Positions 10,701-64,000 of a DNA stretch of 64,000 nucleotides are shown one piece after another. Both the position numbers and the translations under genes were made by a program. Positions within the stretch are counted from its first letter, which is position 1; every line of letters starts with the position of its first letter. Origin of the DNA: an uncultured Ignavibacteria bacterium (lineage in GTDB: Bacteria > Zixibacteria > MSB-5A5 > JAABVY01); contig CAZVLB010000001.1 of NCBI GenBank assembly GCA_964627935.1, positions 308,626 through 372,625 of the forward strand, written 5' to 3'. A model generated the notes under the pieces. That model saw only the letters and a program-made list of their open reading frames with translations. It had not been told where the DNA came from and ran no database searches.

Positions 10701-10824
10701 TTCTCTATATTTCTTTCATTTACGATTTTTTGTTTGACTAATGGGACAATATTGGTGATTTTGCAACTGATTGCTTAAAATAGGCATCAGATTGCTCAAC
10801 AAATTGCCGAATATACCGATATGA

Positions 10825-12297: not shown

Positions 12298-12311
12298 TCT
12301 GAATTTTCACT

Positions 12312-26722: not shown

Positions 26723-26740
26723 TATAGAATACCACTATTG

Positions 26741-26777
26741 ATCCGCGTCTGATATACTGGACGCGGATTTTTTTTTG
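26741..26777 (+). terminator. Rho-independent terminator after the interrupted dockerin gene
   Basis: ATCCGCGTC-tgatatactg-GACGCGGAT followed by a 9-T run. Confidence 0.8.
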
Positions 26778-26790
26778 GCTTTTCCACATA

Positions 26791-26815
26791 ATACAAGATG
26801 TAAAAAGTCTTGTAT
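26791..26815 (+). promoter_or_regulatory. 8-bp perfect inverted repeat between terminator and promoter upstream of the C25-like gene
   Basis: ATACAAGA-tgtaaaaag-TCTTGTAT immediately 5' of the putative promoter. Confidence 0.25.
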
Positions 26816-26842
26816 GGCATTCAATCACATAGAGTTAAATGG

Positions 26843-26870
26843 TTGACATTGAAGTAAATCTAAATATATT
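26843..26870 (+). promoter_or_regulatory. Putative sigma-70-type promoter for the C25-like peptidase gene
   Basis: TTGACA (26843-26848), 16-bp spacer, TATATT (26865-26870), ~155 bp upstream of the start codon. Confidence 0.3.
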
Positions 26871-27026
26871 TAGAGTACAAATGATGGTCATATCTGTCTC
26901 ATTTATGGTCTTACATACGCTATCCTCAAAAGGATGGACTTCTATGGGATAAAGCAACAGGCTTCCAAAAGTTTTTTCTCACAAAAGTGAAAATGATAAT
27001 CTTCATATAATCCGAAGGGAAAAAAG

Positions 27027-29531: not shown

Positions 29532-29550
29532 TATAATTTAGTATAAAGAC

Positions 29551-29590
29551 GGCCCGGTCAGAGCTTTTGGCCGGGCTTCTTATTATTTGA
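29551..29590 (+). terminator. Rho-independent terminator after the C25-like peptidase gene
   Basis: GCCCGG-tcagagcttttg-CCGGGC followed by TTCTTATTATTT. Confidence 0.6.
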
Positions 29591-29614
29591 CAAATTTCGC
29601 ACTTGAGTTATATT
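29587..29614 (+). promoter_or_regulatory. Putative sigma-70-type promoter for gene 29729-31210
   Basis: TTGACA (29587-29592), 16-bp spacer, TATATT (29609-29614); same architecture as the 26843 element. Confidence 0.3.
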
Positions 29615-29728
29615 CTCATAAGGTACAACCGGCCATCAGGGCCGAAATTACCTGCCTTAAATTTACAGGCTTGATTCATAGACCTTAGTACCCGATAGTA
29701 AATATATATTGCCTGAAAGGGACCTGTT

Positions 29729-31210
29729 ATGAAATTAAAATCAGCATCACTAATTATTTTCATGCTTCTAATGGCCGCTGTAACATTAAACGCTGCCAAC
29801 CGGGTGATAATGAATTCGATTCCGCAATCGCCGGTTCATAATACGGAAACTGTTCTTCAGATTGTGACTCAATGGGAAAACGACATCCTTCTGCAGGGCG
29901 TTTCCAATGGATTCGAGTTGACTGTCAGTGGAAATATCGTTTGTGAGATAGATTCCGGAAGTGCCGCAATCGTAGCAGGAAGCCGTCTTGACGGCGCAAT
30001 GGGCTGGAATTTCCGCTATTACCAGGCGCCGTTCGATTCAATAATCATGGGCGGTATCTATATTCCCGGCACATATGATGGTGTGCCCGCCGGAGCATTA
30101 GCTGATGCCTGGACAATGGACCTGAACCTGTCTTATCCCGGCGGAGATCCGGTAACAGATACAGGAACGGTATGTATTGACTCATTGTCGATCTCACCCT
30201 CGGGGCAGTGGATCTGGGATGACGGTACGGGAAACATCAATCCGACTTTTAATGACGGCACGGGTCCGTTGTGCATAGAGGTTGTCTGGCAGATTTGTAC
30301 CGATTCCGATAATGACGGCTATGGTGATCCCGGATTTCCCGAGAATGAATGCCCTGATGATAACTGTCCCGATGTCTTCAATCCGGATCAGCTTGATTCC
30401 GACGGTGATGGTGTCGGCGATTTGTGTGATATCTGCCCCAATCATGAGCTGGATGATTGCTGTAATCCCACAGTAGATAATAATGCACCTCAGATTACAT
30501 CACCATCCAGTATAACGGTTCTTCCGGTTGTGGATGAGGTCAATTATATTGCTGAATGTGATGATCCCGATTGTTCGGGCGGTGAATTGATTTTCAGTGT
30601 CGAGAATGTGCCCGCATGGCTGATTCTCAATGGCGATACGATAAGCGGCACGGCATCATGCGGCGAAGAGGATGCATTGCTGAGACTGATCGTTTCCGAC
30701 GGCACATTGGCGGATACGCTGATAGTCACGGTTGATGTCGATAATAGCAACCAGGCACCACAGATTACAGATCCGGCCGATACGATCAAAGTCTATAACG
30801 GTACTGAATTTGTGTATTATCCGACCATCGATGATCCTGATGATGCTACCCATACGATTAATTATCTGGCATTGCCCGACTGGGCCTCGGTCGTAAATGA
30901 CAGTGTTAAGGCCACCGTACCGTTGGTCAATAATATTCAGGACCTGACAGTGGCTGTCTCCGATGTTTGCGGCGCGGACACATTGAGCTTCCCGGTCTGG
31001 GCCTATATCTGCGGTGATGGTAATAATGACGGCGATGTAAATGTCAGTGATGCTGTCTGGATCATCAACTATGTTTTTGTCAGTGGTGATGCTCCGCTGC
31101 CGATTGAGGCCGGAGATGCTAACTGCGACGGCGATGTTAATGTCAGCGACGCGGTCTGGATCATTAACTTTGTATTCGTCAGCGGCCCGGCCCCCTGCGA
31201 GTGCCCATAA
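29729..31210 (+). CDS. Secreted protein with TSP3 repeats, Ig/cadherin-like domains and C-terminal dockerin-like module
   Basis: Signal peptide (LIIFMLLMAAVTLNAA), TSP3 repeats (DSDNDGYGD...CPDVFNPDQLDSDGDGVGDLCDIC), C-terminal [23 protein letters not shown]...PCECP. Confidence 0.65.
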   Translation: MKLKSASLIIFMLLMAAVTLNAANRVIMNSIPQSPVHNTETVLQIVTQWENDILLQGVSNGFELTVSGNIVCEIDSGSAAIVAGSRLDGAMGWNFRYYQAPFDSIIMGGIYIPGTYDGVPAGALADAWTMDLNLSYPGGDPVTDTGTVCIDSLSISPSGQWIWDDGTGNINPTFNDGTGPLCIEVVWQICTDSDNDGYGDPGFPENECPDDNCPDVFNPDQLDSDGDGVGDLCDICPNHELDDCCNPTVDNNAPQITSPSSITVLPVVDEVNYIAECDDPDCSGGELIFSVENVPAWLILNGDTISGTASCGEEDALLRLIVSDGTLADTLIVTVDVDNSNQAPQITDPADTIKVYNGTEFVYYPTIDDPDDATHTINYLALPDWASVVNDSVKATVPLVNNIQDLTVAVSDVCGADTLSFPVWAYICGDGNNDGDVNVSDAVWIINYVFVSGDAPLPIEAGDANCDGDVNVSDAVWIINFVFVSGPAPCECP

Positions 31211-31233
31211 TTTGTTTACAATTAAGTGATTTC

Positions 31234-31265
31234 AACCCGGTCGAAAAGTGGCCGGGTTTTTTTGT
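31234..31265 (+). terminator. Rho-independent terminator after gene 29729-31210
   Basis: ACCCGGTC-gaaaagtg-GCCGGGT followed by a 7-T run. Confidence 0.65.
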
Positions 31266-31569
31266 TTGCTGATCGTGATTTAGAAAACATATTTGTCAAT
31301 TTGCCGTACACCATACTGATCCCTCGAACCATAATTGAACTGTCAAAATTAAAACTGCGAATATTGTTCTCTCTGCCTTCCCCAGTGATGAGGGCGTTTT
31401 CCAATTTCTCCTTACCTTGTCACGCAACGATGCCGGGCGGATTGCATGGCCGCCCGGCGCTTTAATATTATCTGCAATTTTGCGATTGACTAATTAAACC
31501 AAAACCTTAGATTTATTATATACTCCATATAATTTGGAAATTCCGCATACCCTTTCCCTGGAGTGAAAA

Positions 31570-33222
31570 ATGAAAATCAAATATTTTTCCGTACCGGTGA
31601 TAATTTGTATGCTTTTTATGGGTGAAACACTTCTCGCCCAGCAAAGCACTACCGGCCCGGTACCGCCCGAAGGTGTTGATCTGGGCTCGACATTGAAGTC
31701 AAGGTCGCAGGTGACGATTGAAGGGGTACCCCGTTATATCTGGCATCACGGCTGTGGGCCGACTGCGGCCGGCATGGTGATTGGCTATTGGGATGGACAT
31801 GGCTATGGTGACCTTGTTGATGGTGAGGCGATGGTCCAGCTCGGAAATGTCAAGACAATGATTGCAAGCGATAACGGCCTGGCGGTCTGCAATGATGTCT
31901 TCGCCGATCATTACCGCGATTATTCATGTCCGCGTGATGACACGGGGCCGCTTCTGGCCGATAAATCTGAGACAGGTGGAGCGCATGAAAATGAATGCCT
32001 GGCTGATTTTATGAAAACATCATGGAGCTCAATCGGCAATCGTTATGGCTGGAGCTATGACAGTGATTTGCAGATTTCACTGGATCAATATGTGCCGTAT
32101 GTAAATCCGGCCTATAGCGTGGAGACCGAGAATATTGCCTGCTGGGATGCTGAATTCAGTTGGCAAAGATACAAGGCCGAAATCGATTCCGGGCGGCCGG
32201 TGGTACTTCTGGTTGACACTGACAGCGACGGTTCTACCGATCATTTTGTGACAGCGATCGGCTATGATGACTCAAGCCTGGAATATGGAATATATAATAC
32301 ATGGGACACACAGCTTCACTGGCACAGCTGGGCCGATATTTCCCCGGGCCAGCCCTGGGGAGTTTACAGCATGACGACAATGAAGTGGACCGGTATATGT
32401 GTTGATTCAGATGGCGATAACTGGGGCGACCCCGGTCATCCGGAAAACATATGCGATACCGATAACTGCCCGGATGTCTACAATCCAGCCCAGGATGATA
32501 CAGATGGCGATGGGCTGGGTGATGCCTGTGATCCTGATATCGATGATGATGGATTCCTTAATGAAGATGACAACTGTCCCTATGCTCACAATATTGATCA
32601 GTCCGACACTGACGGCGACAACATAGGTGATGTCTGCGATAATTGCCCGATAGTTTCAAATCCGATGCAGTGGGATGAAGATTCCGATGGCGTCGGAGAT
32701 GCCTGCGACGGCCAGTTGCATATGCAATGCTATGATGTGCCCGATGGAATAATAGGGGAGCCGTATTCATATCAATTCCAGGCTGTGGGTGGTGTGACAC
32801 CCTATAACTGGGAAAAAGTCTGGGGGCAGTTCCCCTATGGTTTGAGTTTCGACAATCAAACAGGGATACTGCAGGGCATACCGACATGGGAGTCGGATTA
32901 TAGTTTCCGTATGCGTGTTACCGATTCCGATTCACCGATGAATGAAGATACCATGCTGATTACGATAGTCATCAGCCAACCACCGCAACCGGATTATATC
33001 TGCGGGGATGCAAATTCCGATGACGACGTCAATATCAGCGATGCCGTATTTGTCATAAATTATATTTTCGTTGCCGGTACTACTCCCGATCCGATTGACT
33101 CGGCGGATACGAATTGTGATGATGGTGTCAATATCAGTGATGCAGTCTGGATTATAAATTTCGTTTTTGCCGGCGGCAATGCGCCCTGTGATACGAATGA
33201 TGATGGTCAGCCCGACTGCTGA
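31570..33222 (+). CDS. Secreted papain-like cysteine peptidase (C39/C10-like) with TSP3 repeats, He_PIG-type Ig domain and C-terminal dockerin-like module
   Basis: Signal peptide; putative catalytic Cys in [17 protein letters not shown]; TSP3 repeats; putative Ig motif ([29 protein letters not shown]); dockerin-like C-terminus. Confidence 0.55.
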
Positions 33223-51713: not shown

Positions 51714-53969
51714 TCAGCAATCACAAGGCGCGGGGCCGTTTGCGAAAACCCAGTTAATCAGCCAGACTGCGTCGGAGACGTTTACATCGCCGTCGCAATT
51801 GACCTCGCCCGACTCTATCGGGTCAGGGGAGGGGCCGTTCAGGAAGACATAGTTGATAATCCAGACCGCGTCGGAAACATTAATCTCGCCGTCATTATTG
51901 GCATCGCCACAGGTATAGCCGTTATCCTCGGTTACCACTATTGTAAGCCAGATTGTGTCCGAACTGGGCGGATTGGATGAATCCTCGACACCCATCTTGA
52001 AGCTGAATTCCGAGGCCCAGGTGGGAACGCCGGAGAGAATCGGCGGATCACCATCAGTATATTCCAGGCCATAGGGGAATTGTCCGGTCAGATGTGTCCA
52101 GGTATAAGGTGGTACACCACCGATAGCATTGAATTCCTTTTCGAAATACTGCCCCAGATAGGCCGTATCGACCGGATTGGAGATTATCGCCATCCCGAAG
52201 GGCGCTTCTGTCTTGGTGCAAAGAACCCATTCTGTCGGATCGAATTTAATCGAATCAACCGGTTGCGGAACATCCAGCACAAAACTCTGCGTGCGTGTCG
52301 AATTAAATACCTTGTAGATCGAATCCTGGCCATTGTAGAAAACCTGTATATCTATCAGCATGGGGAAGACATTCCAGTTGAACTGAGGTCCAACCTGCGT
52401 CTGTTCGATATACAAGACCACTTTATCGCCATTGCCGTTATTGTAATTGGTCCAGCCATATTCATAGTGGGGATTACCATATTGATATACCCAGGCGTTA
52501 AAGAACCACTCCAGATCATCACCATATACCGCCTCGGCATGAGCGACGAAATCATCGGTAACGGCTGTACCGTAGCGAAGATCAGGATCGGACTGATAGT
52601 TGCGCAATATCTGGAACATGGCTGAATCTCCGACAATGGAACGCAACATATGCAGAACTCTGGAACCCTTATTGTAGGTTGATCCGCCATCGAATATATA
52701 GCCGGTGTCGAGATCATAAACATAAACCGGATCTTCATTCAGGCAGGACTGCGTATGAATATAATCATGATAAAACCCGGTGCCGAAGATCTCTTCGAAA
52801 TACAGCGCTTCCGAATACGTGGCAAAACCCTCATTGAGCCAGATATGATGAAAGCTTTCACAAGTGATCAGGTCGCCCCACCAGTGATGAGCCATTTCGT
52901 GGATAATGATCCATTCATTTACGATGTAATGTACCAGTGCTACCATGGTCTGGTTTTCCATGCCCCACAGATCATAAATCGTCTGGCCGTATTTCTCGTC
53001 GATGAAGGGATAGAGGCCGAATATATCCGAAAAAATCTGCAGTCCCGGAATCGTATAGGTCAGATAATTATTCACTGCCTGAGGGTAACCGTCATAGGCG
53101 TAGACCACCACCGGCATAGTGTCGCCGGGAGCATATTCCCAGGCCTGTTCATAAAGATTCTGGTTGGCGCAGGTAAAATGGATCAGGTAGATTGCCATCG
53201 GGTATGTGCTCTTCCAGTGTGTGGTGCTGGTCCCGTCGCCGTTGGAATTAATACTTTGCAGGAGACCATTGGCGCAGGCTGTCATGGACGATGGATGGGT
53301 CACACGCAGGTCGAGGCTGTCGATTTTATCATAGGGGAAATCTTTGCATGGAAACCAGTTTCGTGAACCGAACGGTTCGCATTCTGTCTGGCAGATGGAG
53401 CCGTTGTAAATCGCATCGAAACTCAATCCTCCGCCGGTGTTATTCTGGGGAGTTCCTATAAATGGCGGCGAGCCATGATACTGCACAGTTACCGCGAAAT
53501 CTTCGCCGATATTTGCAGGCTCATTAAGATAAACGGTAAACAGCACTCCGTTTTGCAGATAGCTTGCCGGCTGACCGTTGATACTGACATCGTCGATGGT
53601 AAGCGCGCTGGTGAAAGTCAGGTCAACGAGTGCAAGATTGTCCACATTGGATTTTGCATTAACTGTCGTAACACCGGAAATTGTCTGGCCGGAAAAATCC
53701 AGGGCGATATCGATATCATAATGGGTGACATCATACTGAAACATGTTGGATGTGGGGCTGCTCAGGCCATAGGGGCCGTCCAGCCTTTTTGTGTCATGCC
53801 CATGATTCTTGATAATCTCCGGGCCTAAGATTTTTCTGCTTTCCAGAATCCATTCTCTGATATCACCTTCATACGGCGGCAGTTGCGGAATCTCCCGGTC
53901 GTTTTCGGCCAGCAATACACCGCACAGGATAAGGCATACCAGTCCTGTCAGATAAAACAAGAGCTTCAT
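51714..53969 (-). CDS. Secreted M1-family zinc metallopeptidase with He_PIG-type Ig domain and C-terminal dockerin-like module
   Basis: Signal peptide; HEMAHHWWGDLITCESFHHIWLNEGFATY (HExxH-x18-E M1 signature); putative Ig motif GGVPPYTWTHLTGQFPYGL; C-terminal [23 protein letters not shown]...PCDC. SD GAGGAGG upstream. Confidence 0.82.
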   Translation of the reverse strand: MKLLFYLTGLVCLILCGVLLAENDREIPQLPPYEGDIREWILESRKILGPEIIKNHGHDTKRLDGPYGLSSPTSNMFQYDVTHYDIDIALDFSGQTISGVTTVNAKSNVDNLALVDLTFTSALTIDDVSINGQPASYLQNGVLFTVYLNEPANIGEDFAVTVQYHGSPPFIGTPQNNTGGGLSFDAIYNGSICQTECEPFGSRNWFPCKDFPYDKIDSLDLRVTHPSSMTACANGLLQSINSNGDGTSTTHWKSTYPMAIYLIHFTCANQNLYEQAWEYAPGDTMPVVVYAYDGYPQAVNNYLTYTIPGLQIFSDIFGLYPFIDEKYGQTIYDLWGMENQTMVALVHYIVNEWIIIHEMAHHWWGDLITCESFHHIWLNEGFATYSEALYFEEIFGTGFYHDYIHTQSCLNEDPVYVYDLDTGYIFDGGSTYNKGSRVLHMLRSIVGDSAMFQILRNYQSDPDLRYGTAVTDDFVAHAEAVYGDDLEWFFNAWVYQYGNPHYEYGWTNYNNGNGDKVVLYIEQTQVGPQFNWNVFPMLIDIQVFYNGQDSIYKVFNSTRTQSFVLDVPQPVDSIKFDPTEWVLCTKTEAPFGMAIISNPVDTAYLGQYFEKEFNAIGGVPPYTWTHLTGQFPYGLEYTDGDPPILSGVPTWASEFSFKMGVEDSSNPPSSDTIWLTIVVTEDNGYTCGDANNDGEINVSDAVWIINYVFLNGPSPDPIESGEVNCDGDVNVSDAVWLINWVFANGPAPCDC

Positions 53970-54021: not shown

Positions 54022-56607
54022 CTAAATTGGACACGGTGGCGGACCACCGGAGAAGATATAGTTAATGATCCAGACCGCATCGGAAATATTCACCGCATCA
54101 TCGCAGTTGACATCGCCCATATACAATGGATTGGGCGGCGGACCGCCGGTGAAGACATAGTTGATAATCCAGACCGCATCGGAGACATTAATCTCGCCAT
54201 CACCATTACAGTCGCCTCTTATACTGGGTGATTGAGAGTCCAGGATGAAGAAAAACGGTTGCGCCTGGTAACCGCTTCCGAATCCATCCTGGTTGAATGC
54301 CTCGACATGCCAGTAATAGAAGCCGTCGGTCAATGATGCGGCAGGTGTATATGTGGTGTCATTGATATCTGCATAAGTGGCTACATTGACAGTGAAATTC
54401 TGGTCCTGGGCGATTTGCAATGTATAATCTCCGCCGCTACCGGCTGTTGAGGTCCAGACGAACTGGGGCGTTTCATCGCTGGTTGTACCGCCGTTGGCGG
54501 GACTGATCAGAGTCGGCTTATCAGGCGATTCACCTTCGAGCACATATATTCTGATCGTTATCGTGTCGGCATTGGGCGGAGTGTCGCTGTCTTCTACTGC
54601 CAAAGTGAACTGAAAATCCGAGGCCCAGGTTGGAGTACCATCCAGGTAAGCCGTATTTTCGTTATGGAATGTCAGCCCATAGGGGAACTGGCCGGTTACC
54701 AGGCTCCAGTCGTAATCCGGCACACCTGCCACCGCGGAGAATTCCATGTAATAGGGCTGACCGACATAGGCCGTATCGACTTCTTTGCTGGCCAGGATAG
54801 CCATCTGAAATTCCTCGCTGAACTCAACCGTCCGGAGTATTTTTTCATCCGGATCGATCTGCACCGAATCAGGCGGATTGGGAACATCAAACTGCCAGAC
54901 CTGTCCACGCTGGCTGTTGAAGACTGTCAGAGAGGTGTCATATCCACCGGCAAAGATGTTGACATCGATTGGCATGGGAAAAATCGCGCCGGCCTGTTCC
55001 TGCTTGATCAGGAGATACATGTCATATCCACCATTTACCGTATCCGCCTCATGCTGGAAAGCGTAAACATAATTTGGGTTGCCGGGCTGATATATCCAGC
55101 TGTTAAAAAACCAGCCCATATCCTGACCGTAAACCTGGCTGCAGACTGCGGAAAGGTCCTCGGTTGAGGCATCACCATAAGAATACAGCGGATGATTGAA
55201 ATAGCTGTCCAGGGCCTCGCGAAAGAGCGAATCGCCCATCACCTGGTGCAGCATATATACAACCCATGATCCCTTGTCGTAGACGGTAATGCCATCGAAT
55301 ATATCATCGTTAATCAGGTCCTCGACATAGGGAGTTCCGGCGTCGAGATGTTTCTGGCCCTCGAGCCAGCTTTTATAATAGTTCTCTCCATAATGATATT
55401 TGAAATAAAGCGCTTCCGAATAAGAGGCAAAACCCTCGTTGAGCCACATATGATGAAATGTCCGGCAGGTTACCTGATCGCCGGCCCATTGATGGCCGAG
55501 CTCATGCGCAATCACATATTCTGAATCGAAATAGGGCGAAATCGAAGTCAGCGTTTGGTGTTCCATGGCACCGCCCCAGCCATAGTTGCTGTGGCCATAC
55601 TTTTCATCTATAAAGGGATACAGGGTAAACCAGTAGGATAAAGCTTCCAGCGAGGGATTGGTATAATTCAGCGCATAGTAGACTGAATAGTACTGGCTGT
55701 GCTGGCTGATTCCGGGATAGCCGTAGGTCTCGATCGGCATAGTCTGGCCCGGAGCATATTCCCATGTGTCGGTGAACAGGTTATAATCCGTACATCCGAG
55801 ACTTACCAGATAAGTTGCAATCGGATATTTATGCGACCAGTGAGTTGTGTATGTACCATCGCCGTTACTTGTGGAACTGATCTTGACACCGTTGGAGGCG
55901 GCCAGGTAACCGGATGGATGCGTGATCAGGATGTCGATTGAATCCGGTTTGTCATTGGGATGATCCTCGCAGGGCCACCACAGCCGTGAGCCCCATGGCT
56001 CGCAATTGGTATACGCAACCGGGACGCTTCCCCAGCTATAGAATTGAAGCCCGTCGGTGCCGTCAAAGCCCGGTGTGCCGCCATATTCAACTTTGACAGT
56101 GAACTCATCACCGACGCTAAAGCTTTGCCCCAGGTAGATCGTCAGAAGTTCCGCGTTGTGATTGTAATTGCTGATCGGGCTGCCGTTTAAATAAACCGCG
56201 GAAACATTCAGGAGCCCGCCGTTATTGGTCAGATTGAAATCAACGGCATTTGTATTGTCGTAAAGTGCCTTAAGGCGGGATTCGACATAGCCGTCGATCG
56301 TATAGCTCGAAAAATCCAGCTCGATAGCGATCTTGTAGTAAAGTATATCGACCTTGTTCTGATTGGTGGTTGGTTCGATATTGGTTGATACCAGTGTGGA
56401 TTTCAGATTGTTCTGGAATTTTTCTGTTTTATGCATGCAGGCATGTTTCTCGAGCCTCTGCTCGAGCATCTGCTGCCATTCTTCCGCATCCGGCGGATCA
56501 AGGGTGCCGCGATAAGTTTGCAGCAATTCAGCTTCGGCTGATGGCTGGAAAATTAATATTGCAAAGATCAGGAAGGCTATAAAACCGGCTGTATTTTTAA
56601 GACTCAT
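54022..56607 (-). CDS. Secreted M1-family zinc metallopeptidase, paralog, with C-terminal dockerin-like module
   Basis: Signal peptide; HELGHQWAGDQVTCRTFHHMWLNEGFASY; putative Ig motif; extra beta-rich domain; C-terminal [22 protein letters not shown]...PCPI. Only 52 bp upstream of the paralog, probably co-transcribed. Confidence 0.82.
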   Translation of the reverse strand: MSLKNTAGFIAFLIFAILIFQPSAEAELLQTYRGTLDPPDAEEWQQMLEQRLEKHACMHKTEKFQNNLKSTLVSTNIEPTTNQNKVDILYYKIAIELDFSSYTIDGYVESRLKALYDNTNAVDFNLTNNGGLLNVSAVYLNGSPISNYNHNAELLTIYLGQSFSVGDEFTVKVEYGGTPGFDGTDGLQFYSWGSVPVAYTNCEPWGSRLWWPCEDHPNDKPDSIDILITHPSGYLAASNGVKISSTSNGDGTYTTHWSHKYPIATYLVSLGCTDYNLFTDTWEYAPGQTMPIETYGYPGISQHSQYYSVYYALNYTNPSLEALSYWFTLYPFIDEKYGHSNYGWGGAMEHQTLTSISPYFDSEYVIAHELGHQWAGDQVTCRTFHHMWLNEGFASYSEALYFKYHYGENYYKSWLEGQKHLDAGTPYVEDLINDDIFDGITVYDKGSWVVYMLHQVMGDSLFREALDSYFNHPLYSYGDASTEDLSAVCSQVYGQDMGWFFNSWIYQPGNPNYVYAFQHEADTVNGGYDMYLLIKQEQAGAIFPMPIDVNIFAGGYDTSLTVFNSQRGQVWQFDVPNPPDSVQIDPDEKILRTVEFSEEFQMAILASKEVDTAYVGQPYYMEFSAVAGVPDYDWSLVTGQFPYGLTFHNENTAYLDGTPTWASDFQFTLAVEDSDTPPNADTITIRIYVLEGESPDKPTLISPANGGTTSDETPQFVWTSTAGSGGDYTLQIAQDQNFTVNVATYADINDTTYTPAASLTDGFYYWHVEAFNQDGFGSGYQAQPFFFILDSQSPSIRGDCNGDGEINVSDAVWIINYVFTGGPPPNPLYMGDVNCDDAVNISDAVWIINYIFSGGPPPCPI

Positions 56608-56628
56608 GGCTCCTCCGCAGAAATGTTT

Positions 56629-57159
56629 TCAAGAGCCCGAAGGCGCTTGAAAGGAGAGTTTTTTCAGGATGTCAGATTTTATATCAGAATAATTTTTTCT
56701 TTCAAGGTAGTGAATCAATACATCGTCTCTTGATTTTATCTTATCGGCTACCGGATGAGATATATATATTATAGAAGCTAATAGAGTCTTACCGGAATCA
56801 AGGATATCAAAAACCAGGTTTCTGAAAACATCGGAGAATAGTTCCATTTTCCCGATTTCATCGATTATAACGCAGGATTTGTCCGATATGTTTAATCTTT
56901 TTCTCCGCAAGCTTTCTTCAAATCCTTTCAGATCAACACCATAGTCGGCAACACGATATTTGCTGTCGATATTTTTGTGGGCCAGAATCATTTCCTCGCC
57001 ATCGAGGTAGCTTAGCCTGAATCCCACTCTTTTGTTGCTATTGCGAATCTCATCGGTAAGAAAGCCGCCAAAATCAAAGCCGGGATGCCGGGAAATCTCC
57101 CGCAGGAGCGTGGTCTTGCCGCATCCGGGTTTTCCGGTGACCAGAATTTTATTAATCAC
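56629..57159 (-). CDS. Small P-loop NTPase (THEP1/NTPase_1-like)
   Basis: MINKILVTGKPGCGKTTLLREI Walker A at the extreme N-terminus, Walker B-like VIIDEIGKME; 21 bp upstream of the M1 peptidase gene on the same strand. Confidence 0.7.
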   Translation of the reverse strand: MINKILVTGKPGCGKTTLLREISRHPGFDFGGFLTDEIRNSNKRVGFRLSYLDGEEMILAHKNIDSKYRVADYGVDLKGFEESLRRKRLNISDKSCVIIDEIGKMELFSDVFRNLVFDILDSGKTLLASIIYISHPVADKIKSRDDVLIHYLERKNYSDIKSDILKKLSFQAPSGS

Positions 57160-57430
57160 ATCAAAAAGACGATAAGTAAAACAATGACGGTAACGCGAAT
57201 AAGGTCGATTCCGTTATATAATAACAGCATACATAAGTTACTTCAATTTCTCGAATTGTCAAGAATGAACTTGGATCATCCACTTTCGGGATCGATTTCG
57301 AACTCGGCCGCTTTTGTCGATTTTTTTATCAAAAATTTCCCTTTAAGTATTTATCAGTACAGAATTTAGTTCAACGGCCGATAATAAGATAGACTCTTGA
57401 TGCCTAAAATGGAATCAGCATGGAGAATCA

Positions 57431-58741
57431 ATGAAGATTGACCAACTACTGGAAAGGTTCGGCTCGCTCGAAAACAAGCTGATTGACCTCGAGGTGCAGC
57501 TCGAATCAAAAAACACTGAACTCTATGAGATGGCGCGGGTTGGCGCCATGATTACCTCATTTCTGGAACTTGAAGGCATACTTTCGGCCATGATCGAAAT
57601 GTCCTTGAGGCTTCTGCATGCCGAGGTGGGTTGCATAATCCTGTGGGATGAGAAAACCGATGAGCCCCGGACCCGCATATCATGGGGAATCGATTATTCC
57701 ATGGTTAAGCTCATGAAACTCGAGGGGGATATTGATATTGCGCAATGGGCCCGGGATACCGGCGAATCCGTGATAATCAATGATTTCCCGCCCGAAACCG
57801 AAATCCCGGCCATGGTTAACTCAGTTATTGCCGCACCATTGCGTTGCCGTGACGAGACTATTGGCGTACTCGTGGCAGTCAATAAAACGGATGAAGACGG
57901 TTTCAATAATGAAGACAAAAATATGCTCGAGACGCTGACCAATTTCGCCGGCGTGGCAATTGAAAATTCCAAGTTGATGGATGAACGGCTCAAGCGCCAG
58001 AAACTCGAGGATGAGCTGGCACTGGCCAATGTCGTCCAGCAGGCCCTTTTGCCCGACGATGTGAGCGGTTTTGATGGCGCCTCTGTTTCGCATATCTATT
58101 ATCCCGCGGGCCAGGTCGGTGGCGATTATTATGATGTTGTCCCGCTGGATGACAAGCATTTTGTGATCGTTGTCGGCGATGTTTCCAATAAGGGCGTGCC
58201 GGCGGCCCTGATGATGACCGCGGTTCGTTCGGTGGTGCGCCATGAGGTGCGTAATTCAACCGATATTGCCGCGATTATGACCAATATCAACCGCACTTTG
58301 TGCCGCGATGTGATGCGCACGGATGGCATGTTTATCAGCCTGGTTCTGGCCTATATCGATCTGGAGCAGATGGAGATGACGGCTTGTAATGCGGGCCATC
58401 TGCCGCCCCTGTTCTACAATCCGCAAAATGGCGATATCGAGCAGCTAAAGCAGGGCGGAATAATCCTGGGCACATTCGAGGACTGCGAATACAAATCCGA
58501 AACAGTCAAGCTCAAGTCAGGAGATATGCTGCTCTGTTTCACCGACGGCGTCACCGAATCAATGGACAGGCATGATAATATGTTCGGCCGTGATGGCCTG
58601 ATCGAATACACGCGCAAGCACATGGAAATGGAAGAGGACAGCTTCCTGAAAGGCCTCAAAGCACGAATTGACAAATTCGTGGAGGGTGCCGGGGATACCC
58701 AGTTCGATGATATCACCTGCGTATTAGTGAGGATTTCATGA
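57431..58741 (+). CDS. GAF-domain PP2C-type serine phosphatase (RsbU/SpoIIE-like)
   Basis: N-terminal GAF, then PP2C/SpoIIE motifs (GGDYYDVVPLDD; VVGDVSNKGVPAALMMTAVRS; FTDGVTE). Confidence 0.82.
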   Translation: MKIDQLLERFGSLENKLIDLEVQLESKNTELYEMARVGAMITSFLELEGILSAMIEMSLRLLHAEVGCIILWDEKTDEPRTRISWGIDYSMVKLMKLEGDIDIAQWARDTGESVIINDFPPETEIPAMVNSVIAAPLRCRDETIGVLVAVNKTDEDGFNNEDKNMLETLTNFAGVAIENSKLMDERLKRQKLEDELALANVVQQALLPDDVSGFDGASVSHIYYPAGQVGGDYYDVVPLDDKHFVIVVGDVSNKGVPAALMMTAVRSVVRHEVRNSTDIAAIMTNINRTLCRDVMRTDGMFISLVLAYIDLEQMEMTACNAGHLPPLFYNPQNGDIEQLKQGGIILGTFEDCEYKSETVKLKSGDMLLCFTDGVTESMDRHDNMFGRDGLIEYTRKHMEMEEDSFLKGLKARIDKFVEGAGDTQFDDITCVLVRIS

Positions 58742-59202
58742 GTGACAGCAGTTTTGAAGATAAAATCGAGGTCAGCGTTCCCAGCCGTCTTGAAAACCTG
58801 AACTGGCTTTACCCGATCTGCGACAGCATCCTCAGCGAGCTGCCCTTTGACAGGAAACGCCGCCATATGCTTTTGGTGGCAATCAGCGAAGGTTTCACCA
58901 ATGCGTTTCAACATGGAAACCAGAAAAGCCCGGATACGCAGATCAGGCTAACCTTTTATGTTAGTGAAAAATCGCTCAAAATTCTAATTGAGGATGAAGC
59001 CGTTTTGCCGATAAAAAGTACAGACAACCTGTTTACGGAATACTCCGACCAGGAAAGCACAAGCGGCAGGGGGCTGCACATGATAGGGAAAATTGTCGAT
59101 AATTTATATTTCGAGCACGGTTTGAAGGGAAAGAACAGGCTCGTATTGGAAATTAACTTTGCAGATAAAAGGGAGAAAGCGAACTCTTTCTCGGGGAGAT
59201 GA
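58738..59202 (+). CDS. Anti-sigma regulatory factor / serine protein kinase (RsbW-like, HATPase_c)
   Basis: GHKL ATPase motifs (EGFTNAFQHGN; GRGLHMIGKIVD); overlaps the phosphatase gene by 4 nt. Confidence 0.75.
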   Translation: MSDSSFEDKIEVSVPSRLENLNWLYPICDSILSELPFDRKRRHMLLVAISEGFTNAFQHGNQKSPDTQIRLTFYVSEKSLKILIEDEAVLPIKSTDNLFTEYSDQESTSGRGLHMIGKIVDNLYFEHGLKGKNRLVLEINFADKREKANSFSGR

Positions 59203-59205
59203 ATT

Positions 59206-59565
59206 ATGGAGATCACAGTAAAATCTTCAGACAACTTTAACACATTTTATTTAAAGGGCCGTCTTGACCTGACCAGCTCATCAGAGCTCAAGGAAAAAGT
59301 CAAGGAATATCTGGAGCAGGGCAAGGTCTATATTCTTCTGAACCTGGCCCAGGTTGATTTTATCAACAGTTCCGGCCTGGGGACACTGGTTTCGACTTTA
59401 AAGGAAGTTCGTTCCGTTAAGGGCCGTATTGCTCTTTGCTGCCTGGCTCCATACGTACAGGAAATCTTTGAGATCACGCAGCTCTCGCACATCTTCGATA
59501 TCTATGTTAGCGAAAACGAAGCACGGTCAGCATTCACGGATAGCAAGGTGGCCAGCAGAAGCTAA
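59206..59565 (+). CDS. Anti-sigma factor antagonist (STAS domain)
   Basis: STAS pattern with the conserved phosphorylatable Ser in DFINSSGLGTLVS. Confidence 0.8.
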   Translation: MEITVKSSDNFNTFYLKGRLDLTSSSELKEKVKEYLEQGKVYILLNLAQVDFINSSGLGTLVSTLKEVRSVKGRIALCCLAPYVQEIFEITQLSHIFDIYVSENEARSAFTDSKVASRS

Positions 59566-59575
59566 GGGGTGCCGT

Positions 59576-61483
59576 ATGGAAACTATTGATGCACGTCAGC
59601 AGGAGCTTTTAACCTGGCTGACAAGCGAAGATGTCGACCAGCGGGAGGCGGCTTGTCTGCAATTGCGCCAGTTCGACAATGATACTTCGCGAGCCGCATT
59701 GGTGGCCATGTTTGAGGATCCGGATAAAGGAATCCGCGAACTTGCCGCCGAGGGCCTGATTTCCATGGGCGGGGAGAGAACCGCCTTCTTTCTGGCGGAT
59801 CTGCTCGGACACGAGGATATTTCCATCAGAAATCTATCGGCCGAGACGTTGTCGAAGATCGGCCCGGAAAGCGTCAATCCGCTGATCGAAAAAGTAAGGG
59901 ATGCAGATAAGGATATCCGCAAATTTGCAGTCGATGTCCTGGGACTGATCGGCGACAGCCGTGCCCTGGATGCAATTATCGCGGCTCTTGAAGACGAGAA
60001 TCCCAATGTTGTTTGCTCGGCTGCCGAAGCGTTGGGTGAAATCGGCGATCCCTGTGCTGTGGATGCGCTTGTTAACAAGATGAATAACAGCGAGGATGCC
60101 GCCCTGCAGGCAATTGAAGCGCTGGGCAAAATCGGCGATCATACCGCTCTTGAGGCGCTGGTGAAGGGTCTTGAATCCGATGATCCGGTAATGATCTTTG
60201 CGGTTATCGATGCCATGGGCAATCTCAAACATGCCGAGGCCGCGCCGCATCTGAAAGCGCTCCTGGACAATGCCGATGATGCGCTCAAGGAAGCCATAAT
60301 CGCCTCTTTGATCAAGCTGGCCAAACATGCTGGACGCGTGATTCTCGAGGAACTGCCGGTCAAAAAAATGCAGGAATGCCTGTTCAATGCGCTGGAAGGT
60401 GACAACAAGGCCAACAAGCTTTTCGCGCTGGATGAGCTGGAGCAATGGGAAGGTCCGACCGTTGTCGACCGCCTGTTAAAGGCTCTGGCCGACGAGGATG
60501 AGGATGTCCGCGCCCGTGCCAAAGAGGTGCTCAAGATTTGCGCAGTGAGTTCATGCGACAGAATTTCAGTGGCTCTGAAAGAGGGCGACAGCCGGTACAT
60601 TATAAATCTGCTCGAGACAATCGCATCAACCGGAAATTCACGCTTCATACCGGATATTGTGCGACTGTGCAACCATCCCGATCCAGAGGTCCGTGAAGAA
60701 GTGGCCTATACTCTGGGTAAGATCGGTGACCGCACGGTGATGGAAAGCATATACAAGCTGGCCGAAGATGATATCGGGCATGTGCGCAGCGCGGCTATCA
60801 AATCGATCGGCTGGGTCGGTGACGAACGCGATATCGATAAATTATTGCAGTGGCTGGATGACCAGTATGTCGATGTGCGCGAAGCCTGCCTTGGCGCGCT
60901 GGTGTTGATCGGCGGAGAAAAGGTTATCGCTAAATTCAGGCATGACCTGGACCATGATGATAAGGAACGCCAGAAAATGGCCGCCACTGCTCTGGGATGG
61001 ATCGGCGAAAGTGAAGTTGTCGAACCGCTTATTTCGGCCCTCAATCATCCCGAATGGGAGGTGCGCAGATCGGCCGTAGAAGCCCTGGGCAGAATCGCCG
61101 ACAAACGAGCCCTGGATCCGCTTCGCTATGTACTTAACGACGATCATTCGCAGGTACGCAAATCGGCTATTGATGCTATAGTCGGGCTGGAAGGCAAACG
61201 TGCCACCCAGAGCATCAATATGCTACTGGACGATCAGGATATCTGGGTGCGCTTTCACGCCATCAATGTCATCAGCCGCCTGGGCGACACGTCGGTGACC
61301 GAAAAGATCGTGGCTCTGCTCTCGGATGAAAACGACATTATCCGTGTGGCCGCGGCCAAGGCCCTTTCAAATTTGAAAGATCAGAGATCATTACCGATCC
61401 TGAGAAATATAGCCAATGACCCCAACCGTGATGTGGCCGAGGCCGCATCACAGGCTCTTCACGTTTTGGAAGGGAGTAGCTGA
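59576..61483 (+). CDS. HEAT-repeat (PBS-lyase type) protein
   Basis: About 18 tandem ~31-aa repeats of the form D.D..VR..AA.ALG.IGD..A...L; start set at ATG 59576 (the ORF track extends upstream into the STAS gene). Confidence 0.75.
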   Translation: METIDARQQELLTWLTSEDVDQREAACLQLRQFDNDTSRAALVAMFEDPDKGIRELAAEGLISMGGERTAFFLADLLGHEDISIRNLSAETLSKIGPESVNPLIEKVRDADKDIRKFAVDVLGLIGDSRALDAIIAALEDENPNVVCSAAEALGEIGDPCAVDALVNKMNNSEDAALQAIEALGKIGDHTALEALVKGLESDDPVMIFAVIDAMGNLKHAEAAPHLKALLDNADDALKEAIIASLIKLAKHAGRVILEELPVKKMQECLFNALEGDNKANKLFALDELEQWEGPTVVDRLLKALADEDEDVRARAKEVLKICAVSSCDRISVALKEGDSRYIINLLETIASTGNSRFIPDIVRLCNHPDPEVREEVAYTLGKIGDRTVMESIYKLAEDDIGHVRSAAIKSIGWVGDERDIDKLLQWLDDQYVDVREACLGALVLIGGEKVIAKFRHDLDHDDKERQKMAATALGWIGESEVVEPLISALNHPEWEVRRSAVEALGRIADKRALDPLRYVLNDDHSQVRKSAIDAIVGLEGKRATQSINMLLDDQDIWVRFHAINVISRLGDTSVTEKIVALLSDENDIIRVAAAKALSNLKDQRSLPILRNIANDPNRDVAEAASQALHVLEGSS

Positions 61484-61866
61484 TGCCCAGGGTATTAGTT
61501 GTCGATGATGAGCTTTTGATCCGGGATCTGCTGTATGATTTCTTCTCCTCCCGAGATTATGAAATCATCCTGGCGGAATCGGGCCATAAGGCTCTGGATA
61601 TCTTGGCCAATGAGCATATCGATGTGGTCCTGACCGACCTGAAAATGCCGGATATGGACGGGCTCGAGATGATTCGCAGGGCGGATATCAAAAAAAGCGG
61701 ACCCCCGGTTATCATTATGACCGGCTTTCCCTCAATCGAGTCGGCCATTGAGGCGATTCGACTGAAAGTATCGGATTACGTAATCAAGCCATTCAACATT
61801 AACCGGCTGTTTGAAAGCATTGAAGGCGCGCTGGAGGAATACAAAGGTGTTACAGTCGGACAATAG
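61483..61866 (+). CDS. Single-domain response regulator (CheY-like receiver)
   Basis: VLVVDDELLIRDLL; DVVLTDLKMPDMDGLEM; start overlaps the HEAT gene stop. Confidence 0.85.
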   Translation: MPRVLVVDDELLIRDLLYDFFSSRDYEIILAESGHKALDILANEHIDVVLTDLKMPDMDGLEMIRRADIKKSGPPVIIMTGFPSIESAIEAIRLKVSDYVIKPFNINRLFESIEGALEEYKGVTVGQ

Positions 61867-61874
61867 GAGTATAT

Positions 61875-62387
61875 ATGTCAACTGACAGGGTCCTGGTCGT
61901 AGATGACGAATTATTCGTAAGGGAGCTGCTCGACGAGTATTTTTCAAAGCTGAAATTCGCGGTTGATGTGGCTGAATCGGGAGAGGCGGCCGTGGAACGT
62001 GTGCGCGAAAACAAATATCATGTGGCTTTGATAGACCTGAAGATGACCGGCATGGACGGCCTGGGGACGTTGCGCAAGATCAAGGAGATCGACCCGGATG
62101 TGGTCCTGGTTCTAATGACCGGCTACCCCACGGTGGAATCTTCGATCGACGCGTTGCGTGCGGGCGCCTATGACTATATAGTCAAACCCTTCCGCTTAAA
62201 TGAGCTAAAAGACATTATCACCGGCGCGATCAAGGAGTACGAGGTACGTAGAGATATCTCCGAACTCAAACACAAGGTCAGGCTGCTGGAGGAATCGTTA
62301 AGACGCTCCGGCACTGAGATTGTCGGTGATGAAGATATTGAGAGGGACAGCTCGGAAATTCCCGCACGGGCCAAGTTTTCGCAATAG
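61875..62387 (+). CDS. Response regulator receiver protein with short C-terminal extension
   Basis: VLVVDDELFVRELL; VALIDLKMTGMDGLGT; ~50-aa charged C-terminal tail. Confidence 0.85.
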   Translation: MSTDRVLVVDDELFVRELLDEYFSKLKFAVDVAESGEAAVERVRENKYHVALIDLKMTGMDGLGTLRKIKEIDPDVVLVLMTGYPTVESSIDALRAGAYDYIVKPFRLNELKDIITGAIKEYEVRRDISELKHKVRLLEESLRRSGTEIVGDEDIERDSSEIPARAKFSQ

Positions 62388-62506
62388 AACGACCCGCGCA
62401 TGGGTGAGGATTAATCTCGGCGATTTGATCGCTGCAGGATAAGTAAAAAAAGGGTGTGTGTCTGGTAGGGAGCGGCCCCAGCCGGCCTTCCTTACGGGAG
62501 AAAATT

Positions 62507-63469
62507 ATGATAACAGGTTCGAATACACAGCTTACGCTGAGTCAGGAAGACTTTGTCGCGGTTCGGGATTTTATCTATGAAAAGGCCGGAATCTGGTTTG
62601 CAGACAATAAAAAGTACCTGATCGAGAGCCGCCTGACCAAGCGTATGAATGAACTCGGTATTACCAGCTACAAGGATTATTTCTACCGGGTCAAATATGA
62701 CACCTCGAATAAAGAATTTGATGCGTTGATGAATGTGGTCACGACCAACGAGACCTCATTCTTCCGCAATCCGCCGCAACTCAAGGCTTTTTCCGACGAA
62801 GTTTTGCCTCAGATGTTAAAGGAGAAGTCGGAAAACAAGGCCGGCGGCAAAAAAATCAAAATTTGGTCGGCGGGATGTTCAACCGGCGAGGAGCCATATA
62901 CATTGTCGATTATCCTGATGGAGAAGCTGAAACCGTTGACCTCCTGGAATATCGAAATAATCGCCAATGATATTTCACAGAATGTGCTCTATGCCGCCCG
63001 CAAGGGAATCTACCATGAGCTCAGCCTGCGTACCACCGAACAGGCTATAAAGGACAGGTATTTCATACCCGAGGGCAACAAATACCGCATAAAAGATGAA
63101 GTCAAGCGGCTGGTGAAATTCAATCATGTCAATCTCAATGATTCGCGCCAGGTGGGCTCGATCACGGATTGCGATTTCATCTTCTGCCGCAATGTAATGA
63201 TATATTTTTCGGATGATATAAAAAGGTCGCTGATCAAGCAGTTCTACAAGAGCCTGCGTCCCGGCGGCTATATGTTTATTGGACACTCGGAATCGCTGCA
63301 TGGCATTTCCAAGTCGTTCAAGCTGGAATATTTTAAAAGCGCCCTGGTTTACAAGAAGGAAATCGCCTCAGCGGCGGCAGTAAATCAGACCACTGACAAA
63401 GTTGCCAGTTCTCACAGCAGTACCATGGATACGCTGGCGAAAATCAGGCAGCTTCTGGAAAAGAAGTAA
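62507..63469 (+). CDS. cheR: Chemotaxis protein methyltransferase CheR
   Basis: CheR N-terminal helical domain and SAM-binding motif KIWSAGCSTGEEPYTLSIIL; start at ATG 62507 with SD GGGAG. Confidence 0.85.
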   Translation: MITGSNTQLTLSQEDFVAVRDFIYEKAGIWFADNKKYLIESRLTKRMNELGITSYKDYFYRVKYDTSNKEFDALMNVVTTNETSFFRNPPQLKAFSDEVLPQMLKEKSENKAGGKKIKIWSAGCSTGEEPYTLSIILMEKLKPLTSWNIEIIANDISQNVLYAARKGIYHELSLRTTEQAIKDRYFIPEGNKYRIKDEVKRLVKFNHVNLNDSRQVGSITDCDFIFCRNVMIYFSDDIKRSLIKQFYKSLRPGGYMFIGHSESLHGISKSFKLEYFKSALVYKKEIASAAAVNQTTDKVASSHSSTMDTLAKIRQLLEKK

Positions 63470-63491
63470 ATTCTATAAGAGGTGAATATAT

Positions 63492-63863
63492 ATGAAGCAG
63501 ACAATCTTAATTGTTGATGATTCACCGACGGTACTGAAGTTCGTCAGTTACAGCCTTAAGAATTCCGGTTTTAAGGTGGTAACTGCCATGGATGGTATGG
63601 ATGCCCTCGAAAAGATGTCATCGCTCGAGAATCCGGTGGATATGGTTATCACCGACCTGAACATGCCCAATATGGACGGCTACGAGCTGATCGCCACTCT
63701 GAGAAAGAATGCGCAGTTCGAGTCAACTCCGATCATCATTCTCTCATCAGAAGAGGATGACAAGGACAAGAAAATGGGCCAACAGGTTGGAGCGGACTCA
63801 TATCTGACCAAGCCGTTTAAATCGTCGGTTCTGCTGTACGAGGTCAGCAAGTTTTTGTCCTGA
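63492..63863 (+). CDS. Single-domain response regulator (CheY-like)
   Basis: ILIVDDSPTVLKF; DMVITDLNMPNMDGYELI; KPF motif. Confidence 0.85.
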   Translation: MKQTILIVDDSPTVLKFVSYSLKNSGFKVVTAMDGMDALEKMSSLENPVDMVITDLNMPNMDGYELIATLRKNAQFESTPIIILSSEEDDKDKKMGQQVGADSYLTKPFKSSVLLYEVSKFLS

Positions 63864-63900
63864 AAAATGAAATAGTTATTTGAATATATAAGGAGGCAGA

Positions 63901-64000
63901 AGTGCAAAACCTTAAGATTCTGGCGGTTGACGATTCTCCGACAATGCGCCGGATTATAATCAATACCCTCAAGAGAGCGGGCTTCAATGATGTTGCTGAG
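63901..64000 (+). CDS. Response regulator receiver (CheY-like), 5' fragment running off the window
   Basis: GTG start with SD AAGGAGG upstream; translation VQNLKILAVDDSPTMRRIIINTLKRAGFNDVAE is a typical CheY N-terminus. Confidence 0.7.

Follow-up and report, generated by a model that had tools for sequence, protein, structure and literature searches.

The window analyzed here is a stretch of 64,000 nucleotides (nt) from contig CAZVLB010000001.1 (positions 308,626 to 372,625), deposited under an uncultured Ignavibacteria bacterium and placed by GTDB in the Zixibacteria. At its right-hand end, genes for a serine phosphatase, a serine kinase, and a STAS protein of the partner-switching type are followed by those for a HEAT-repeat protein, single-domain response regulator receivers (REC), CheR, and CheY. 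This part of the window makes up the opening two-thirds of a Zixibacteria flagellar chemotaxis operon, and the genes ahead of cheR are referred to below as its accessory block. The features are as follows.

57358-57384, plus strand: promoter-like motif of the sigma28 (FliA) type, TACA-N15-GCCGATAA, matching 11 of 12 consensus positions
57431-58741, plus strand: GAF-PP2C serine phosphatase, 436 amino acids (Pfam GAF_3, 1.5e-14; SpoIIE, 3.2e-47)
58738-59202, plus strand: RsbW/SpoIIAB-like GHKL serine kinase, 154 amino acids (Pfam HATPase_c_2, 3.8e-15)
59206-59565, plus strand: single-domain STAS protein of the anti-sigma-antagonist type, 119 amino acids (Pfam STAS, 3.7e-21)
59576-61483, plus strand: HEAT/PBS-lyase-type repeat protein, 635 amino acids, with its ATG at 59576 (Pfam HEAT_2, 1e-101 over 8 stretches; HEAT_PBS, 4e-45)
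61483-61866, plus strand: REC1, a single-domain receiver, 127 amino acids (Pfam Response_reg, 3.5e-28)
61875-62387, plus strand: REC2, a receiver with a coiled-coil tail of about 50 amino acids, 170 amino acids in all (Pfam Response_reg, 8.2e-28)
62507-63469, plus strand: CheR methyltransferase, 320 amino acids, with its ATG at 62507 after GGGAG (Pfam CheR_N, 1.3e-16; CheR, 3.2e-57)
63492-63863, plus strand: REC3, a CheY-like single-domain receiver, 123 amino acids (Pfam Response_reg, 4.8e-29)
63902-64000, plus strand: 5' end of cheY (33 codons; GTG after AGGAGG), cut by the window end; the full gene, of 125 amino acids, lies at 12049-12426 of locus L001, described below

An initial annotation, made from the sequence alone, had assigned the domains of all of these genes, and each assignment was reproduced by Pfam. 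From the PP2C gene through cheY, the junctions in the window measure -4, +3, +10, -1, +8, +119, +22, and +38 nt; 4 nt are shared by the end of the PP2C gene and the beginning of the kinase gene, 1 nt is shared by the end of the HEAT gene and the beginning of REC1, and the 119 nt ahead of cheR form the sole long gap of the cluster. A terminator scan predicted 12 sites, against 8.1 ± 3.1 in shuffled sequences, and placed none in an intergenic gap inside the cluster, in agreement with the initial annotation, which had seen no terminator within the run. No RNA family was matched in an Rfam scan of positions 56000 to 64000 at an E value of 0.1.

The initial annotation had also remarked that no CheA, CheW, or receptor is encoded before the window ends, which is true of the window, and had proposed that the partner switch serves as the output of a chemosensory pathway. 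An assembled Logan contig, SRR7048225_42316 (locus L001), which is 100% identical to the window across a 12,147-nt overlap and 3 kb longer, contains the complete cheY followed by genes for CheZ (202 amino acids) and CheA (612 amino acids) and by the start of another gene. By Pfam, this CheA has Hpt, dimerization, ATPase, and CheW-like domains. The NCBIfam models for CheA (491 bits) and CheY (141.5 bits) are the best for the two proteins, both scores being under the Escherichia coli equivalog cutoffs. In relatives (L004 to L008), cheA is followed by cheB, by genes for a PAS histidine kinase and a sigma54 activator, and by motA and motB, and in a 3.84-Mb Zixibacteria genome (L089), motAB are followed by flgB, flgC, fliE, fliF, fliG, fliH, fliI, and fliJ. 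With motAB and flgBC-fliEFGHIJ downstream, the cluster is therefore a flagellar chemotaxis operon within a flagellar supercluster and not an alternative, CheA-less chemosensory pathway; CheY, CheZ, CheA, CheB, motAB, and the basal-body genes amount to a canonical motor output, and the proposal of an alternative pathway is unsupported. Extension of the contig downstream, which the initial annotation had advised, thus yielded cheA in L001 and cheB in relatives. It yielded no sigma factor gene, and no cheW, cheD, or chemoreceptor gene was found in the cluster in the L004 to L008 and L089 contexts; cheW and the receptor genes presumably lie at other loci of the genome. Annotation of the rest of the window (57 kb) revealed no sigma factor, receptor, cheW, or flagellar gene.

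The order cheY-cheZ-cheA-cheB and onward to motAB is like that of the cheYZAB-motCD operon of Pseudomonas and the flagellar che operon of Vibrio. A gene for a CheZ-family phosphatase (Pfam PF04344) follows cheY throughout this nonproteobacterial phylum, at positions 12442 to 13050 of L001 and in L004 to L008.

A scan of one genome per GTDB species identified relatives of the HEAT protein in 306 genomes, and the best 80 loci, nearly all labeled Zixibacteria, were retrieved and surveyed with profile hidden Markov models made from the reference genes, at HEAT identities of 33 to 71%. About 90 clusters of full-length HEAT orthologues, of 633 to 639 amino acids and 38 to 71% identity, show almost no indels, and the names, where given, are Zixibacteria or GN15. 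The gene order is GAF-PP2C, kinase, STAS, HEAT, REC1, REC2 (where present), CheR, REC3, CheY, CheZ, CheA, CheB, PAS kinase, sigma54 activator, and MotAB. It is the same in five divergent orthologue contexts, with flanks upstream of the PP2C gene that vary among genomes, and was recovered in essentially all 80 loci, including those with as little as 33% HEAT identity. The apparent exceptions are explained by contig ends, a chimeric contig, and six loci with a fused kinase gene. The probable assembly chimera, the metagenome-assembled contig L085 (560-3169), had looked like a variant without cheR, cheZ, and cheA, and was discarded when a ClpC-like N terminus was found in frame with its HEAT open reading frame (ORF).

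The kinase gene seemed to be absent from seven loci, and in six of these it is fused to a neighbor. The phosphatase and the kinase form a single ORF in three species (L020, L056, and L061), and the kinase and the STAS protein do so in three species (L062, L068, and L071). The first fusion mimics proteins of the HsbR/CrsR type minus their receiver, and the second tethers the kinase to its substrate. In a deep-branching clade (L006, L079, and L080), an extra single-domain receiver gene lies directly upstream of the PP2C gene, which recalls the receiver-PP2C fusions of other partner switches (CrsR and HsbR).

Spacing is also tight across the surveyed loci. The median gap is 1 nt between the PP2C and kinase genes, 19 nt between kinase and STAS, and 29.5 nt between STAS and HEAT. 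Between HEAT and REC1 it is -1 nt (77 loci), with 99% of these gaps at or below 30 nt, and the two genes are predicted to be translationally coupled. REC1 and cheR are separated by a median of 125 nt, or 54 nt where REC2 intervenes; median gaps from cheR through cheB are 13 to 28 nt, and they rise to 69 nt before the PAS kinase gene and 160 nt before motA.

Promoter-like motifs are found at a few of these boundaries. The sigma28 (FliA) consensus is TAAA-N15-GCCGATAA, and the motif in the window ends 46 nt ahead of the PP2C ATG. In the survey, we counted a -10-like heptamer (G[CT]CGATA or [GT]CCGATA) within 120 nt upstream of genes, with expectations from shuffled sequences. Of 65 PP2C genes, 48 are preceded by it (1.1 expected), as are 32 of 33 motA genes (0.3 expected) and 12 of 63 cheA genes (1.0 expected); not one copy was found upstream of cheR in 75 loci (1.3 expected) or of the HEAT gene in 79 loci (1.9 expected). 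Counts of the two-element sigma28 motif agree with those of the heptamer. The sigma28-type motifs before the first gene and before motA thus appear to put the block in the late flagellar regulon, and the simplest reading is that one late flagellar (sigma28) promoter would drive the accessory and che genes together. The enrichment before cheA hints at an internal promoter; an internal promoter for cheA has been reported in Pseudomonas putida. A sigma54 motif (TGGCAC-N5-TTGCA) was also considered, and upstream of the PP2C gene, cheR, the PAS kinase gene, and motA it was absent, at or below the shuffle level.

Two side observations concern these motifs. In most of loci L009 to L088, the heptamer begins only 15 to 19 nt before the predicted PP2C start, compared with 54 nt in the window, which suggests leaderless or very-short-leader mRNA or else start codons that were predicted too far upstream. 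The octamer GCCGATAA occurs at 10 sites in the whole window, with 3.1 expected from shuffles, mostly within coding regions (for example, 56741-56748 on the minus strand and 59007-59014 on the plus strand), an excess that may reflect chance or codon usage; one 11-of-12 sigma28-like motif (56741-56768, minus strand) lies about 130 nt upstream of an M1 peptidase gene.

These data bear on whether the partner-switch and HEAT genes are simply unrelated neighbors of a chemotaxis operon. The initial annotation had itself named such a finding, an ordinary flagellar operon downstream with adjacency by chance, as what would overturn its proposal of a linked block. The flagellar operon was found; chance adjacency was not. 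The 119-nt gap before cheR, which has its counterpart in relatives, would suit unrelated neighbors, but the order is kept in 80 genomes down to the lowest HEAT identities, whereas the upstream flank of the PP2C gene varies, the flagellar-type motif precedes the PP2C gene and not cheR, and the gaps hold no predicted terminators. We regard this explanation as close to refuted. Because of the conserved order, the fusions, the tight spacing, the overlap of HEAT and REC1, and the position of the promoter motif, the adjacency of the accessory block and the che genes is clearly not a matter of chance, as far as genome comparison can tell, and the view of the initial annotation that the genes form one linked block is borne out.

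The first protein of the switch has an N-terminal coiled coil, a GAF domain, and a SpoIIE-type PP2C domain, in that order. Its metal-binding motifs (GGD, GDVSxKG, NAGH, TDGxTE, and DDxT) are invariant in 73 to 74 of 76 orthologues and intact in the window protein. The best solved relatives of the kinase are Bacillus subtilis RsbW (6m36_A; E value, 1e-5) and SpoIIAB. The N box, SE.FTNA..HGN, is invariant, the G2 box reads GRG in 71 of 71 sequences, and the G1 box reads D-[EQ]-G in 70 of 71. The window kinase alone has D-E-A (Ala88, codon at 58999-59001); the closest loci, L009 and L010 (70 to 71% HEAT identity), keep the glycine, and the independent Logan contig shares the base of the window. 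The STAS protein scores 85 bits on the NCBIfam ant_ant_sig model, above the cutoff of 53, and aligns to SpoIIAA (1th8_B; E value, 2.5e-14), with Ser55 at the phosphorylated SSG motif. Its F-I-N-S-S-G-L segment is invariant in 77 to 79 of 79 species, the next glycine is present in 78, and Ser55 is present in all 79; at a median distance of 0.51, compared with 1.3 for the kinase, it is the most conserved switch protein. All scores on the Bacillus equivalog models are far under the cutoffs. As a family, then, the switch module is predicted to be biochemically complete, its catalytic and predicted phosphoacceptor residues being kept, Ala88 of the window excepted.

Control of sigma factors is the best-known role of partner-switching modules, and the initial annotation had offered a sigma factor as an example of the switch target. 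Neither the cluster, nor the 57 kb of the window that precede it, nor the 10 kb past motA was found to contain a sigma factor gene; the target may be encoded elsewhere or may be the HEAT protein. The module has the same three biochemical parts as RsbU/RsbV/RsbW and SpoIIE/SpoIIAA/SpoIIAB of Bacillus, from which it differs in lacking an adjacent sigma factor and in having a GAF input and a flagellar operon setting.

A more distant sigma factor could nevertheless be its target. In classical partner-switch operons, transcription depends on the very sigma factor under their control, and sigma28 falls in one sigma group with sigmaB and sigmaF. The kinase could thus be an anti-sigma factor for sigma28 (FliA), with the STAS protein as its antagonist and the GAF-PP2C protein as the input, in an autoregulatory loop like those of rsbV-rsbW-sigB and spoIIAA-AB-sigF; a metabolic signal would then set late flagellar and chemotaxis gene expression, and HEAT and REC1 would be separate chemotaxis accessories. 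The anti-sigma factors RsbW and SpoIIAB are indeed the nearest solved structures, and the sigma28-type motif ahead of the first gene is what such a loop calls for. That motif is not specific, since sigma28 promoters are expected at all late flagellar genes, and classical modules usually carry the gene of their sigma factor, which is missing here over the whole region searched. The natural kinase-STAS fusions also fit poorly with a freely exchanging anti-sigma factor. On balance, control of sigma28 by the kinase is unlikely.

Partner switches associated with che or flagellar genes have been described elsewhere. The Pseudomonas genes hsbA-hsbR-hptB are found in flagellar clusters, adjoining cheR in Pseudomonas aeruginosa; unphosphorylated HsbA binds FlgM, and phosphorylated HsbA binds the cyclase HsbD. 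The likeness to the Zixibacteria module extends to a PP2C phosphatase, an RsbW-like kinase, and a phosphoserine STAS protein among flagellar and che genes, with motility rather than general stress as the output. HsbR is a single protein whose receiver takes its input from the Hpt protein HptB, whereas the Zixibacteria phosphatase has a GAF input and the module usually comprises three proteins; no stand-alone Hpt gene was found in the cluster in the window or in L004 to L008. The general logic and the genomic setting alone are shared. The HEAT protein and receivers that follow the Zixibacteria switch have no equivalent in HptB-HsbR-HsbA, and the motif upstream of hsbA is sigma70-like in P. putida whereas that of the Zixibacteria switch is sigma28-like.

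By analogy with HsbA, the STAS protein could itself be the output, with the state of Ser55 selecting either the kinase or a distant target (FlgM or a diguanylate cyclase) in a motile/sessile switch. The phosphorylation-dependent choice of partner by HsbA, encoded in a flagellar cluster, is the model for this possibility, to which the HsbR-like fusion of PP2C and kinase in three Zixibacteria species and the strong conservation of the STAS protein relative to the kinase add some weight. It has to contend with the missing Hpt protein, with a phosphatase that has no receiver domain, with contexts (L004 to L008 and L089) in which neither flgM nor a diguanylate cyclase gene lies near the cluster, and with an evolutionary distance at which orthology with HsbA and HsbR is itself unlikely. 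We consider it decidedly improbable.

In the "stage 1" clusters of the F7 chemotaxis class (Vibrio and Shewanella), che genes are joined to STAS proteins and a serine phosphatase, and in Che1 of Shewanella, the CrsR/CrsA switch controls the sigma factor RpoS. The F7 stage 1 systems are nonflagellar second systems with cheD, cheW, and Aer2/McpA receptors. The Zixibacteria cluster, in contrast, is flagellar and has CheZ, motAB, basal-body genes, and the HEAT protein, and it has no receptor, cheW, or cheD gene within it.

The HEAT protein follows the switch genes directly. Few bacterial proteins of unknown role are as common as HEAT_PBS-repeat proteins. An AlphaFold2 model built from the orthologue alignment (mean predicted local distance difference test score [pLDDT], 92.6) has about 40 helices in about 20 hairpins and no other domain. 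The Foldseek matches to this model in the PDB are alphaRep designs, SF3B1 (TMq, 0.60), CAND1, the PP2A A subunit, and karyopherins, that is, generic solenoids only, with no specific functional relative in that database. From its model, the protein is best described as a solenoid of the scaffold type in which no catalytic site is evident. This is in keeping with the scaffold role that the initial annotation had thought possible: the confidently modeled solenoid resembles scaffold proteins, and HEAT proteins that bind receivers are documented. Identity as a phycobilin lyase or NblB was considered and rejected, the NCBIfam scores being 162 bits for NblB (cutoff, 300), 128 for CpcE (cutoff, 330), and 83 for CpcF (cutoff, 220), which amounts to a match at the level of the repeat only.

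Two precedents for a HEAT protein that works with receivers are relevant. In the Che7 cluster of Myxococcus xanthus, the HEAT/PBS-lyase-type protein Cpc7 is reported to be encoded beside, and bound by, the single-domain receiver CheY7. The Zixibacteria HEAT gene likewise adjoins a single-domain receiver gene in a che cluster. Che7 controls development and not flagella, and its cluster is without partner-switch genes. In Halobacterium, OE2401F consists of HEAT_PBS repeats only and is encoded in the che/fla region; its binding partners are CheY, CheD, and CheC2, and motor switching requires it. It differs in being archaeal and in operating with CheF (DUF439) and an archaellum and without a partner switch, and according to its paper, orthology is not establishable for repeat proteins. 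The Zixibacteria operon joins both kinds of precedent, the partner switch in a che or flagellar cluster and the HEAT-receiver pair. Literature searches on Zixibacteria chemotaxis and on PBS-lyase proteins in bacterial che operons returned nothing specific, and no paper on the arrangement was found.

All four receivers keep the acid pocket, the phosphoacceptor aspartate, the threonine or serine, and the lysine. REC1, with conserved DD, D52, T, and K, has a receiver sequence of the NtrC/AtoC/FixJ type, and its nearest match within each genome is the receiver of the sigma54 activator encoded downstream (median score, 200). The 31 of 80 loci that have REC2 belong to certain clades, in which REC1 has been duplicated. 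REC3 is a paralogue of CheY; it is closest within the genome to the adjoining CheY (median score, 216) and scores merely 76 bits on the NCBIfam CheY model. The fourth receiver (start at 63902) is CheY, for which the E. coli-type CheY model is by far the best. The extra single-domain receivers in Zixibacteria chemotaxis operons are thus not all CheY, which annotators should bear in mind. CheR scores 186.8 bits on the NCBIfam CheR model, under the cutoff of 435; its start codon is that of the gene call on L001.

These receivers could carry a signal from CheA to the switch. A receiver fed by CheA (REC3 or REC1/REC2) would dock on the HEAT protein and control the GAF-PP2C phosphatase or the kinase, so that the switch becomes a second output of the chemoreceptors. 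Phosphotransfer from CheA to the phosphatase cannot be direct, because the phosphatase carries a GAF domain and not a receiver, but a CheY paralogue is encoded between cheR and cheY, the deep-branching clade has its extra receiver gene directly before the PP2C gene, and CheY7 of M. xanthus is reported to signal to a HEAT protein. Set against this are the full canonical output downstream (CheY, CheZ, motAB, and the flagellar genes), the GAF domain as the phosphatase's own sensor, and the affiliation of REC1, which is nearer to the receiver of the sigma54 activator than to CheY and may have the PAS kinase, not CheA, as its kinase. A second chemoreceptor output through the switch is very unlikely.

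The reading that we prefer is that a GAF-controlled phosphoserine switch and a HEAT/receiver adaptor modulate flagellar chemotaxis, and we put its probability at roughly one half. The kinase would phosphorylate the STAS protein at Ser55. The GAF domain would sense an intracellular ligand and set the activity of the PP2C domain, and the GAF-PP2C protein would reverse the phosphorylation of the STAS protein. Dephosphorylated STAS protein would then capture the kinase, with a change in the binding partners of the kinase or of the STAS protein. The other partner of the switch would be the HEAT solenoid with its coupled REC1, acting as an adaptor for phosphorylated receivers on the model of the Myxococcus Cpc7-CheY7 pair and of the Halobacterium HEAT_PBS protein with CheY. 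In this way, a metabolic or second-messenger state could tune chemotaxis signaling or the motor in parallel with the path from CheA through CheY to the motor, which is reset by CheZ.

Within this proposal, the HEAT-receiver pair is favored as the partner because no sigma factor is encoded nearby and because HEAT and REC1 are invariably next in line. That the HEAT solenoid and its receiver are the switch partner of the RsbW-like kinase or the STAS protein, so that the switch controls a scaffold for CheY-like receivers and not a sigma factor, is a tentative suggestion, possible though somewhat doubtful. If it is true, there would be a phylum-wide posttranslational gate linking flagellar chemotaxis to a metabolite sensed by GAF, a new output class of partner switches, and a first flagellar-chemotaxis role for bacterial HEAT_PBS proteins.

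Several points weigh against the modulatory switch as set out above. Beyond gene content, conservation, and motifs, everything in it, the mechanism included, is inferred. The alanine in place of the invariant G1 glycine may mean that the window kinase binds ATP poorly and is a weakened kinase or a pseudokinase in this lineage. A promoter of a different type could lie in the gap before cheR. Because the survey started from the HEAT protein, it is blind to Zixibacteria that have a che operon without the accessory block. Evolutionary-rate correlations, obtained by the mirror-tree method with partial Mantel tests, were 0.57 for PP2C-HEAT and 0.55 for kinase-REC1, next to 0.48 for CheR-CheB and 0.42 for kinase-activator as positive controls; they were also 0.47 for HEAT and the unrelated PAS kinase and 0.00 for kinase-STAS, a certain pair. 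Because the HEAT-PAS kinase value is high and the kinase-STAS pair is missed, these correlations do not discriminate among the readings.

The accessory block is a real, strongly conserved, and unstudied add-on to a known pathway, not a new kind of system; close conceptual precedents exist, and the general picture of chemotaxis is unchanged. It offers a clean comparative-genomics case of how serine phosphorylation switches and HEAT adaptors plug into histidine-aspartate chemotaxis signaling, and it also poses the question of what such a switch targets with no sigma factor nearby.

The remaining 57 kb of the window carry housekeeping, proteolysis, and fatty-acid/leucine catabolism genes. At positions 7247 to 12297, genes for a GAF histidine kinase, a receiver-GAF hybrid histidine kinase, and a sigma54-dependent response regulator stand in a row, unrelated by position to the chemotaxis cluster. 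A histidine kinase gene (605-1870) is followed by a gene for a receiver-PglZ protein (1946-3514), to which the NCBIfam PorX equivalog model gives 665 bits (cutoff, 300), and judging by these matches, the pair looks like the PorY/PorX regulators of the type IX secretion system. The regions 26315-33222, 51714-53969, and 54022-56607 encode at least six predicted secreted proteins that end in a type I dockerin, among them a C25 peptidase and a C39-like/He_PIG protein. Two M1 aminopeptidase-like ORFs end in dockerin-like repeats; that at 54022-56607 is an M1 peptidase with a dockerin by Pfam, and that at 51714-53969 is putative.

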